From IMG/VR virus record IMGVR_UViG_2718218360_000002: a DNA stretch of 64,000 nt. One strand, 5' to 3'. Every line of letters starts with the position of its first letter. Position 1 is the stretch's first letter. Of the stretch, positions 15,001 to 18,000 are shown one piece after another. The DNA comes from a virus (taxonomy: Duplodnaviria > Heunggongvirae > Uroviricota > Caudoviricetes). The position numbers are program-made.

Positions 15001-18000
15001 AATTTTTTTGCTGTGCGCCAGTAAAAACCGCCTTTAATCCCAAGGCGTTTTCTGACTTTGTCATTTTTGGCTTCGTAATACAGTGCAATTTCTTCTTTAT
15101 CAGTGCTCATTGATAAACCTCATAACTATTTTAAGGTTGTACGAATCCCTGCTATTGCTGGCATGCTTAATCAACGGGTATGGCGTTAATACGGCTGGCG
15201 GGTTATCCAGCCGGTATTTCGTTATTCAGGTACAGCGATACTTTGTTTAACGGGAGACATTCACCGGAAATTTTTTGCTCGTCTCTTGCCTGATGGCAGG
15301 ATTCTTTACTGGCATAAATTCCGGTAATCACATTCTGTGGCTCACCTGTTATAAGAAAAACCGTCATCATCAGTGCAAACGCTGAACTCACTGCTGCCCT
15401 CCGAAAATGCCAAGTTCAAGAAGGGCAATTCTGGAGAGTATGGAATTATCATTGAGAAGATAAGGCTCATATTTTCTCATCCTGATGGCGTCTTCAGTAA
15501 ACTCCCGGTTACTGAGCAGAATACCAATATTAAAACACCCTTCAGACGTATTAACGTTTGGTAGTGACGTTTCCATTATCGCGTCCTCAACAATGAATTT
15601 TGTGATGCGGTGCCTGGTGCCTCCAGGTGACGTTAACCAGTTAACAATTAACGCCGGATACAGAGAATCCACCCATAACACTGTTTTTGGTTTTAACTGT
15701 TCCGCGTGCGCTCAGCCGCATTCACCACATCACAAAATTCACTTTAAAAAGGGCGGCAGAGCAGTCACGGAGTAAAACTGATACCGCCAAACGTCACCAG
15801 AAAATTGATAACAGAGGGCGTTGCAGCGGGGTTGTCACTTAAGCGTATGGTCAGCCTGACAACCCGGTGTCCTCAAGGGGAAGGAATAACCCCGCCATAC
15901 TTACCGCCGCGCCATTTCGCGGATTGCCACAACCAGAAGCGCACGGTCGAAGAAATTTAACGGCAAGACTTATATGCAAAGGGATCTCGCCGTGCGCTTT
16001 CGTGTTATGCCCTGACTTTTCAGGGTAAATTAACCTGTGGAAACCTGTTTTTACTGGCGCTAATCAGTTAGCGTTTCTGGCTAACCAGCGATGCGCGGCA
16101 GCTTCGGTTTTAAACGTTTTACTTTTGGTATACGTCATCGCGGTAAACGTGCCGTCCTGATTGGGAAACACGCCACATACCAGAGATTCGTTGTTGCCAA
16201 GATTGAGCGTATCCATGTTGACCTCATTTGCCCTTAACGCCGGGGGGGGCGGAACTAAGACCTGTCGCACCGTTGTGCTTTGATGGGATATATTGTTCTC
16301 TTAAGATGAACATATGTCAACATTGTGAATGCGCAAGAGGCAAAAAAAACCGCCTTCCGGCGGTATTGTTTTGTAAAATAAAGAATTATTTTTGTCGCGT
16401 TATTGGGTCAACGTATTCTGAGTAAAATTCGGTCAGTTTTTGAAGGCGCATTTGAAAAGCTGCCAGCATATTTCTACGCTCTACAGGTGGCAGGTTTCTG
16501 TAAACATCAAGCAGGGCTTTCTCATCATCATCAAGCGCCTCTCTGTTTGTATCTTCTTTTCCTGTCAGTAGCCAGGAAAGGGAAACATTTGTCGCTTCTG
16601 CAATTTTGGCTGCGGAATCTTTACTGATTGTCCCTCTTTTTTTCCAGGCGTTGACTGATGAGCGTCCTACACCAGCGATGCGCGCTAAATCTGAACCGCT
16701 TAAATGATGCTGTTGCGAGATCGTATCTAACCTTTCTGCCAGCGGGGTGTCGTATTGCTTTTTTCTCATGTCCATTTAGCAATTATAACCGTTCAGTGAA
16801 CACTAACAATTCCTCGTAGTGTTGACTTATGTTCTCTTTAAGTGAACAATGTTGTGGCTGATTGAATTGGAGGTTGTATGACAGCATTGGACAAGGCAAT
16901 AAAGATTGCTGGTGGTATTCGTCCGCTAGGGCGTGCAATAGGGGCTTGGCCGTCTCAAATACACAAATGGGCAAATGAATACAATGGTCGAGTGCCGACA
17001 GGGGAGCGGGTTCGTCAAATTTATATTGCAACTGGGGTGACTCCTCATGAATTGCGACCAGATTTATATCCGAATCCAACCGACGGGTTGCCTGCTGGAG
17101 ATAAGGCTAACACACAAAATACACCGGAGTTGATTCATGAAAATCAAGCATGAACACATCCGCATGGCGATGAATGCCTGGGCGCGTCCTGATGGCGAAA
17201 AAGTTCCAGCAGCTGGAATAACCCAGGCTTATTTTGAGTTGGGTATGACGTTCCCAGAACTGTATGACGACAGCCATCCGGAAGCCCTGGCTCGCAATAC
17301 CCAGAAAATTTTCCGCTGGGTAGAGAAAGACACCCCTGATGCTGTTGAAAAAATGCAGGCTCTGTTACCGGCGATCGAAAAGGCGATGCCGCCTTTGCTG
17401 GTGGCCCGTATGCGCAGCCACAGTTCTGAATATTACCGTGAGATCGTCGAACGGAGGGATCGGCTGGTGAAGGATGTCGATGATTTTGTTGCGTCAGCGG
17501 TTGTTTTGTATGACCAGATGAATCGCGGCGGCCCGGCAGGGAATGCTGTGGTGATGCACTAAAAGCACGGTGTTCGGGGGTTTTATGAGCAGCAAGCTTC
17601 ATGGTCTTGTCTGGGAAGGGTGCGCCTTCACCGGCATGATCTTATCCAGGGTGGCGGTTATGGCCCGTCTTGCAGACTACAGCAATGACGAGGGCGTGTC
17701 ATGGCCTGCCATTGAAACTATCCGGCGTCAGATCGGTGCAAGAAGTGAATCCACAGTGAAATCGGCTATTGCAGAACTGGCGAAAGAGGGCTGGCTGACG
17801 AAGGAAGAGCGTAAGGTCGGTGGGCGTAACGTAAGCAATATCTATCGGCTTAATGTGGAAAAACTTGAAGCAGCTGCAGCGGCGGCGCGTGAGGCATATA
17901 AACCAAAAAGAAAAATTAGCCAGGCAAAAAATGACCCGTCAAATATTGCCCCCTCAACGGTTGGCCCGTCAAATGTTGATGGATCAACTGTTGATAAAAA

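Follow-up and report, generated by a model that had tools for sequence, protein, structure and literature searches.

How is a prophage induced when its repressor lacks the domain through which RecA stimulates autoproteolysis? This question is raised by a 64,000-nucleotide (nt) stretch of DNA (IMG/VR record IMGVR_UViG_2718218360_000002, the whole of which is hereafter called the window) that carries a lambdoid prophage whose immunity repressor, a protein of 129 amino acids (aa), consists of a helix-turn-helix (HTH) domain and a short tail. In enterohaemorrhagic Escherichia coli (EHEC), type III effector and Shiga toxin genes are moved by lambdoid prophages, of which a strain has a dozen or more, and which of these prophages answer DNA-damaging antibiotics depends on the off-switch of each repressor. 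Non-cleavable repressors were first scored as defects in the prophages of strain Sakai; later, in Salmonella, they were recognized as part of an antirepressor pathway.

Our main proposal is that the product of a conserved 55-aa open reading frame (ORF; 22854-23021, + strand) is the likeliest antagonist of the repressor, acting on its C-terminal tail and without direct SOS coupling in this prophage. The proposal comes from sequence comparisons, and we consider the chances of its being right to be about even.

The repressor and its class

The repressor gene occupies 16386-16775 on the minus strand (the start chosen by the Prokaryotic Genome Annotation Pipeline, PGAP, at 16769, gives 127 aa), and encodes an HTH domain followed by a conserved tail of two helices. 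The interval under which the initial annotation described the repressor, 16776-16877, is the 102-bp divergent promoter/operator spacer beside the gene. The initial annotation's description of the protein, as 129 aa with an HTH, a short tail and no LexA/S24-type C-terminus, agrees with domain content, family length and structure prediction. Pfam matches were to HTH families only (Phage_CI_repr, 1.8e-12; HTH_3, 2.6e-8), with no match to Peptidase_S24. The 83 homologues that we collected from E. coli, Salmonella, Klebsiella, Enterobacter and Cronobacter nearly all measure 126-133 aa, and since they are uniformly short, the length of the repressor is native and truncation is excluded. The AlphaFold model (mean predicted local distance difference test, pLDDT, 84) is all-helical, with five helices (residues 11-71), an 11-residue linker (72-82) and two further helices (83-94 and 97-121), and has no beta-rich domain. 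No catalytic Ser/Lys module of the S24 type was found by Pfam or in this model, and the linker contains neither an Ala-Gly nor a Cys-Gly cleavage site, the sole Ala-Gly of the protein being residues 34-35, within the HTH. A repressor without an S24 domain would have no RecA-stimulated autoproteolysis; from this domain content and from the experiments on relatives described below, we infer that it cannot self-cleave on RecA filaments.

The best Foldseek match of the model was SinR in the SinR/SinI complex (1b0n_A, E 3.7e-4; TM-score 0.40-0.49), and the best sequence match among solved structures was the CI repressor of phage 186 (2fjr, E 0.004), limited to the HTH. A pairwise BLASTP comparison with GtgR, a repressor of the Salmonella Gifsy prophages, aligned residues 12-126 (E 4e-6). 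The repressor can be aligned over its full length, tail included, with GfoR/GtgR and with DicA of prophage Qin, with E85, L88, P96 and E99 invariant and 21-22% identity to GtgR/GfoR. It probably acts as a dimer. Short non-cleavable lambdoid repressors have about 125-165 aa, a CI-like HTH that takes up most of the protein and no peptidase domain, all of which is found here; the repressor is a new member of this already known class, together with GfoR/GtgR, DicA, PaaR2 and the repressors of Sakai prophages Sp4, Sp6, Sp9 and Sp10.

Experimental work on the class provides the background to our question. Instead of being cleaved, the Gifsy repressors are inactivated by small antirepressors encoded in a LexA-controlled dinI-antirepressor-irsA operon (Lemire et al. 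2011, PMC3121763). The same study assigned DicA, RacR and numerous E. coli homologues to this class (PMC3121763). Rem is an antirepressor of DicA that derepresses the DicA targets, and its inducing signal is not known (Ragunathan et al. 2023, PMC10448788). No peptidase domain is present in the repressors of Sp4, Sp6, Sp9 and Sp10, and mitomycin C fails to induce Sp6, Sp9 and Sp10 (Asadulghani et al. 2009, PMC2669165). PaaR2, encoded next to ydaS-ydaT in CP-933P, likewise lacks a peptidase domain (Jurenas et al. 2021, PMC8630535). An induction logic different from the cleavage of lambda CI, which the initial annotation had thought probable, is supported by the domain content of the repressor, and was already established for its class (PMC3121763, PMC2669165, PMC8630535, PMC10448788).

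A small ORF that accompanies the repressor tail

The 55-aa ORF, which we take as the candidate cognate antirepressor gene, is annotated by PGAP as a hypothetical protein and belongs to phrog_34610. It lies about 6 kb from the repressor gene, between hokD and a ydfU-like DUF968 gene, with a 92-aa ORF (23087-23365) intervening before the latter; the hokD-DUF968 interval is the place of rem in Qin. The same ORF is present, although uncalled, in Salmonella prophages that we located through a 73%-identical repressor. In E. coli prophages that have a 98%-identical repressor and other replication genes, it immediately precedes irsA/DUF1367, as the antirepressor gene gftA does in Gifsy. Other small genes conserved in the Salmonella relatives (65, 90, 62 and 72 aa, and others) have no homologue in the window.

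Association between the small ORF and the repressor tail was examined from both sides. A scan of IMG/VR with a profile of the 55-aa protein gave 58 loci, and the reverse scan with the repressor tail alone gave 80. Where enough upstream DNA was available, 41 of 42 loci anchored on the small ORF have a gene for a short repressor of 126-165 aa whose tail bears the motif NML[ALSV]AF[QE]MR. Conversely, 47 of the 52 tail-anchored loci for which 9 kb or more is available on the cro side carry the 55-aa ORF, 4-8.5 kb away, as do all repressor-anchored Salmonella and Cronobacter loci with enough flanking DNA on that side. Pooling the profile-, tail- and repressor-anchored loci yields 49 distinct small-ORF sequences, nearly all of exactly 55 aa. 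Of 5426 complete E. coli genomes, 90 contain the ORF and 81 the tail, each as a single copy; neighbouring genes are found in thousands. The ORF is not in Qin, Gifsy-1/2 or the Stx1 prophage discussed below, and a profile scan of one genome per species returned no match.

The tail, rather than the DNA-binding domain, appears to be the part of the repressor with which the small ORF varies. The HTH domains of tail-bearing repressors are of at least three types, one of them GtgR-like, and the tail stays recognizable throughout; between two types whose HTH domains are unrelated by eye, the tails are 81% identical by our own count. Over 61 distinct combinations, the identity of the small ORFs tracks that of the tails (Spearman correlation 0.51; partial correlation 0.44 given the HTH), whereas its partial rank correlation with HTH identity, once the tail is accounted for, is -0.13.

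Relatives of the prophage also differ in how the small ORF is controlled. We scored LexA sites with a position weight matrix (PWM), which gives 23.5 to the experimentally defined boxes of the Gifsy dinI gene. A strong LexA box lies no more than 800 nt upstream of the 55-aa ORF in 30 of 57 loci anchored on this ORF, and in 18 of 52 tail-anchored loci; these boxes are near-consensus (PWM 26-29), an example being TACTGTATAAATATACAGTT in locus L045. In two loci (L127 and L128) the box is about 40 nt from the start of the small ORF, and in L127 it overlaps a TTGAGA-17-GATACT promoter, the leader having been read by eye. More usually, the box precedes a gene for a 107-aa protein (9495-9817 in L045, and 29 other IMG/VR loci), which is followed by the small ORF. 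The 107-aa product begins MGFPSPATDYVE, like processed UmuD, and its N-terminus, MGFPSPATDYVEQ, reproduces that of processed UmuD'; Pfam gave no match, no catalytic Ser/Lys could be seen by eye, and the gene is not in the window. Phage 186, with its Tum fusion, and Gifsy, with dinI-gftA, offer parallels to such an SOS-modulator homologue followed by a small gene.

In the window, and in the hok-linked relatives from E. coli and Salmonella, the LexA box and the 107-aa gene are both missing before the 55-aa ORF, so that the Gifsy-type arrangement of a LexA box ahead of the antirepressor operon is found in relatives and not in the window. Upstream of the ORF, at the place that the LexA-boxed promoter takes in other relatives, we find a sigma-70-like promoter, TTGATT-16-TAGAAT (22728-22755, + strand), with no LexA box; the hok-linked relatives from E. 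coli keep its TAGAAT hexamer, and the Salmonella members have a different hexamer there. Since no LexA-boxed promoter precedes the ORF in the window, the module presumably lacks a direct cis-acting input from SOS.

The leader of the small ORF has features of its own. At 22766-22853 (9930-10000 in L045, and in other loci), the sequence GCGCGCAGGGAnAAnAnGGAyGGnCCCC...GGGG is conserved in both the LexA-boxed and the hok-linked classes, and the leader in the window includes a 19-nt tandem duplication (ATAAGAGGGATGGCCCCC repeated). A conserved RNA hairpin was considered for this leader and rejected: only four weak pairs form (-3.5 kcal/mol), and no Rfam family maps there.

The control region suggests what the repressor would do at its targets. 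In the 102-bp spacer (16776-16877) between the repressor gene and a Cro-like gene of the YdaS family (16878-17153, + strand, 91 aa), a consensus scan placed the promoter PR (TTGACT 16822-16827, 17 nt, AACAAT 16845-16850, + strand) and a divergent PRM-like promoter (TTGTTA 16809-16804, 16 nt, TATAAT 16787-16782, - strand). The Cro-like gene is followed by one for a CII-like protein of the YdaT family (17137-17562, + strand, 141 aa), both families being assigned by Pfam and PHROGs. On the other side, downstream of the repressor gene and of a bidirectional terminator-like hairpin (16349-16364), the same scan found a PL-like promoter (16292-16322; TTGACA 16320-16315, 17 nt, AACAAT 16297-16292, - strand) that heads the leftward operon (DUF1391, DicF, dicB, exonuclease, xis, int). 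PR and PL mirror each other as the two arms of a 31-nt inverted repeat (84% complementary). The spacer of PR contains a perfect 19-bp palindrome, TGTTC-N9-GAACA (16830-16848), and that of PL a second one (16294-16312); an imperfect copy with two mismatches fills the PRM-like spacer (16790-16808). We predict these sites to be operators: there are three perfect palindromes of this form in 64 kb, against about 0.06 expected for ten fixed bases (our own estimate). The third (47995-48013, TGTTCCATTCCACGGAACA) is located 35 nt inside the ant gene described below; its central 9 bp are unlike those of both predicted operators, and it could be due to chance or tied to a sar-like antisense unit. The half-site AGTGAACA, which the initial annotation had proposed to look for elsewhere in the prophage, is indeed in excess (7 copies against 1.75 expected), but outside the right operator (OR) it occurs only as isolated half-sites, and the full palindrome is the informative operator unit. 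In a Salmonella relative with the 73%-identical repressor, TGTTA-N9-TAACA stands at the same position in PR, a pattern that would be expected of a heteroimmune sibling.

In the mechanism that we propose, the repressor would bind the palindromes between the -35 and -10 hexamers of PR and PL, and more weakly the copy over its own PRM-like promoter. The 55-aa protein would lift repression through the conserved tail, as SinI does on SinR, GfoA on GfoR and Rem on DicA. In the many related phages in which the small gene stands behind a consensus LexA box, this would make induction SOS-driven through LexA. In the prophage of the window and its hok-linked relatives, the LexA-boxed promoter is absent, and the E. 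coli members have the sigma-70-like promoter there, followed by the conserved leader; switching would then depend on the control of that promoter, on read-through from PR (a positive feedback), on stochastic repressor/YdaS bistability, or on the antirepressors of other prophages.

Several observations weigh against the 55-aa protein as antirepressor. The association of ORF and tail could mirror shared descent of a single early-region backbone, as homologues of ydaS and ydaT are present in the same loci; moreover, the two IMG/VR sets share contigs and contain related sequences, so that their counts are not independent. The protein matches no Pfam family, including the Rem family PF27490, and its family has no similarity to GftA. 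A profile-profile comparison with the Rem family gave a probability of 52% (E 1.4e-4) over 25 N-terminal columns, which is a short and borderline match; with deeper profiles it rose to this value from the 1.3% of an earlier hhalign run that used a shallow profile. Rem itself has no homologue in the window by BLASTP or tblastn, nor any BLASTP alignment with the 55-aa protein. Single-sequence AlphaFold predictions of this protein were unreliable, the five models disagreeing (pLDDT 79 versus 51-59), and were not used. The LexA matrix was built from E. coli boxes known from the literature. Finally, a constitutive sigma-70-like promoter would defeat lysogeny, and the control step that keeps the small gene silent is therefore missing from our model.

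With somewhat less confidence than the proposal itself, we suggest a broader generalization. The 55-aa protein may found an undescribed family of small antirepressors, whose receiver would be a portable two-helix tail (...P-x-x-E-x-x-NML(A/L)AF(Q/E)MR...) carried on at least three HTH types. Protein and tail would form a mobile cassette independent of immunity specificity, which in many enterobacterial phages would be wired to LexA, directly or behind the UmuD'-like gene, and in the effector-carrying ompW-type prophages of EHEC would be unplugged, making these SOS-blind and open to another trigger.

Alternative routes to induction

The alternative that survives best, although we find it clearly less convincing than the 55-aa antirepressor, is that there is no dedicated antirepressor and that the 55-aa ORF is unrelated: the repressor and YdaS would form a bistable switch, thrown stochastically or by cues such as temperature, urea or growth phase. 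Precedents are close at hand, since the DicA/DicC pair switches of its own accord in about 1% of cells and also reacts to urea and heat without any need of Rem (PMC10448788), the PaaR2/YdaS/YdaT switch of CP-933P is heritably bistable and unrelated to SOS (PMC8630535), and the mitomycin C-insensitive Sp6, Sp9 and Sp10 excise spontaneously (PMC2669165). Furthermore, LexA sites are absent from the vicinity of both the immunity region and the 55-aa ORF. Such a switch, however, leaves unexplained the two-way co-occurrence and the covariation of small ORF and tail, as well as the consensus LexA boxes that precede the small ORF in many relatives. Bistability and a 55-aa antirepressor are compatible, and not mutually exclusive.

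We regard as unlikely a second possibility, that SOS reaches the repressor in trans, by way of an antirepressor from another prophage; this could be a LexA-controlled small protein, or an Ant made once a phage with a cleavable repressor, such as Stx1 or Stx2, has been induced. Antirepressors do act across heteroimmune prophages, as in the crosstalk between Gifsy and Fels-1 (PMC3121763), P22 Ant is reported to inactivate several repressors (discussion in PMC3121763), and O157 genomes hold many Ant, KilAC and P22_AR genes. In addition, Sp4, whose repressor has no peptidase domain, was circularized only after mitomycin C (PMC2669165). Against this stand the failure of the drug to induce Sp6, Sp9 and Sp10 (PMC2669165), and the rarity of the Gifsy-type dinI-gftA-irsA operon, found at the DNA level in 69 of the 5426 E. 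coli genomes and in none labelled O157:H7 among the 40 matches listed. A P22-type Ant would, moreover, have to bind a repressor that has no lambda/P22-type C-terminal domain.

The initial annotation had suggested an SOS entry in cis, through the LexA-controlled dinI gene or the antirepressor Ant of the same prophage, and this we consider very improbable. The suggestion has a basis: two good LexA boxes at the dinI promoter, an intact P22-type ant gene, and the fact that in Gifsy the antirepressor gene comes after dinI (PMC3121763). The dinI promoter (57887-57939, - strand) consists of TTGACA (57939-57934), an 18-nt spacer and AAAAAT (57915-57910), with LexA boxes in the spacer (ATCTGTATGGATAACCAGTG, 57916-57935, PWM 14.9) and at about +1 (AACTGTAGTTATGTACAGGT, 57887-57906, PWM 17.7), and is a textbook SOS arrangement. 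However, the gene that it serves (57625-57873, - strand) is monocistronic and encodes an ordinary stand-alone DinI-like protein of 82 aa, with no Tum-like extension. An antirepressor ORF behind it was sought and rejected, as the same strand offers only a 27-aa ORF with a TTG start and a 56-aa ORF antisense to nleG. In tblastn searches of the window with GftA, IrsA and the Gifsy DinI, no gftA or irsA homologue was found, and only the dinI gene was matched. DinI acts on RecA filaments, an action that is not needed for a repressor without a cleavage domain.

The ant gene is no better placed. It encodes a P22-type antirepressor of 307 aa (47960-48883, + strand) with both P22_AR_N and P22_AR_C, 55.6% identical to P22 Ant, and belongs to a module between tail genes L and K that reproduces the immI region of P22. 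An Arc-like repressor gene precedes it (57 aa, 47716-47889, + strand), an Mnt-like gene of the Arc family diverges from it (106 aa, 47288-47608, - strand), and a hairpin (47897-47928, - strand) lies where the sar RNA would end; the module as a whole covers 47288-48883. The ant region thus comes with its own repressor genes, and, as the initial annotation had noted of the ant promoter region, it has no LexA box, no site in 47200-48000 reaching a PWM score of 4.

There is also the origin of both genes. The window is E. coli O157:H7 DNA, identical over 15000-19500 (100%) to several O157:H7 chromosomes, and its prophage (11074-58174) is a chimera. The left arm, with the ompW' junction, the integrase and the early region, matches the ompW prophage of strain FRIK2455, to which the first 32 kb of the window are 99.99% identical. 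The right arm, with the tail tip, the ant module, nleG genes, dinI and the mlrA' junction, matches an Stx1-type prophage at mlrA (yehV), from which it derives; the right end of the window agrees at 100% identity with the terminus of the Stx1 prophage that FRIK2455 has at this site. The chimera has the appearance of having arisen by inversion between two prophages, and because its ends come from different attachment sites, site-specific excision is unlikely. In FRIK2455, the arm with ant and dinI is part of the Stx1 prophage, and the ompW prophage, which shares the immunity region of the window, has no ant insertion and a dinI gene that is truncated at its 5' end and lacks a LexA box. A native ompW prophage in this state implies that neither gene is the repressor's own off-switch, and dinI and Ant are not supported as its cognate partners. 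As to the truncated gene, it is fused at its 5' end to attachment-site sequence (24910-25152 in locus L002), its own start and both LexA boxes being gone.

Other LexA-like sites in the window are few. At a PWM score of 15 or more, 0.25 matches were expected from shuffled windows. The dinI boxes, which the initial annotation had reported (57889-57933) as the only clear ones, are both real; matches are also present at 10329-10348 (15.6), left of the integrase gene and outside the prophage, and at 26204-26223 (CACTGTAAAAATATCCAGTT, 21.3), the best of the window. No site scoring 4 or more was found at the immunity region or upstream of the 55-aa ORF, and a CTGT-N8-ACAG-type box over a core promoter exists in the window for dinI only. 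The best-scoring site occupies codons 3-9 of a prophage DNA methylase ORF (N6/N4, 26196-27254) downstream of Q, and we found no sigma-70-like promoter beside it. In related prophages this 20-mer is kept (C/TACTGTAAAAATATCCAGTT, with scores of up to 24.2), and codon 2 and the flanking bases vary.

Destruction of the repressor after DNA damage, by atypical RecA-dependent cleavage or by a host protease, is scarcely credible, as it has nothing specific in its favour beyond the Ala-Gly dipeptide, which lies within the HTH, and is opposed by the absence of an S24 domain and Ser/Lys module and by the homologous Gifsy repressors, which are not cleaved (PMC3121763).

Should the 55-aa protein be the missing antirepressor, it would provide a simple, testable handle on the induction of ompW-type prophages, and would show plainly how the same regulatory cassette can be tied to SOS in certain phages and not in others; should it not be, the repressor is no more than a typical representative of its class. 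Both that class and its departure from lambda-type induction had been described before, and we put forward the candidate antirepressor and its putative portable target tail as a testable lead.

Prophage context and comparison with known systems

The gene order of the prophage is that of a Rac/Qin-like lambdoid: int, xis, exonuclease VIII, DUF1482, dicB, the DicF RNA, DUF1391 and the repressor gene, then, divergently, cro and cII, followed rightward by O-like and DnaC-like genes, hokD/sok, DUF968, rusA and Q. Rfam identified DicF (15751-15802, - strand), sok beside hokD (22233-22407, + strand), STnc100 (27334-27534, + strand) and the anti-GcvB small RNA AgvB (27537-27598, - strand). The ydfU-like DUF968 gene (23367-24416) contains an internal stop, and is a pseudogene in the FRIK2455 annotation. 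Type III effector genes nleG and espM1 are present in the window, and the region is flanked, at 2690-5039 and 61651-64000, by two identical ISEc8 elements (IS66 family, with tnpA, tnpB and a 512-aa transposase) in the same orientation. The immunity region is rare: 81 of the 5426 complete E. coli genomes have it, and Sakai and EDL933 do not.

Compared with the classical switches, lambda CI, P22 C2 and LexA share with the repressor an N-terminal HTH of the same superfamily and, in the phages, a repressor gene between PL and PR with operators overlapping the promoters; unlike them, the repressor has neither an S24 domain nor a cleavage site in its linker. The P22 immI region (mnt-arc-ant, with the sar RNA) is reproduced in the window with a divergent Mnt-like gene, Arc-like and Ant genes and a hairpin where sar would end, but here it lies between L and K of a siphovirus-type prophage and comes from the other parent of the chimera. 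Phage 186 also has a non-cleavable repressor, inactivated in its case by a LexA-controlled antirepressor; Tum is an antirepressor-DinI fusion, whereas the 82-aa DinI of the window has no extension and no adjacent small ORF. In SinR/SinI of Bacillus subtilis we recognize an HTH followed by a C-terminal helical hairpin, which in SinR is both the site of oligomerization and the target of a small antagonist; as SinR is a host biofilm regulator, the likeness is a mechanistic analogy and not one of membership.

The remaining systems are closer. PaaR2/YdaS/YdaT (CP-933P, or Sp12) and RacR/YdaS/YdaT (Rac) likewise have a short, peptidase-less repressor divergent from ydaS-ydaT, and the former is described as a bistable, SOS-independent switch (PMC8630535); PaaR2 has another repressor sequence, and the window lacks the paaA2-parE2 toxin-antitoxin genes downstream. 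Qin of E. coli K-12 (PMC10448788) shares the order int ... dicB - DicF - DUF1391 - repressor / cro ... hokD - small ORF - DUF968 - Q, a repressor, DicA, without Ala-Gly and peptidase domain, and an antirepressor gene, rem, without a LexA box. It differs in that identity to DicA is about 25%, that Rem has 83 aa and falls in PF27490, and that the Cro of the window is of the YdaS type and is followed by a YdaT-type CII.

Finally, Gifsy-1, -2 and -3, with the repressors GfoR, GtgR and GfhR and the antirepressors GfoA and GftA (PMC3121763), have HTH-only repressors of about 130-140 aa without S24 that align over their full length with ours, a divergent cro-like gene and a leftward operon of the exonuclease VIII type. 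Unlike Gifsy, the window has a repressor about 22% identical to GtgR, no homologues of gftA, gfoA or irsA, no LexA box before the small gene and no dinI-antirepressor operon. It is the relatives of the window that come nearest to Gifsy, with a small gene directly upstream of irsA/DUF1367 that is LexA-controlled in many of them, and with an operon that, in the LexA-boxed cases, opens with the 107-aa protein bearing a UmuD'-like N-terminus instead of dinI.

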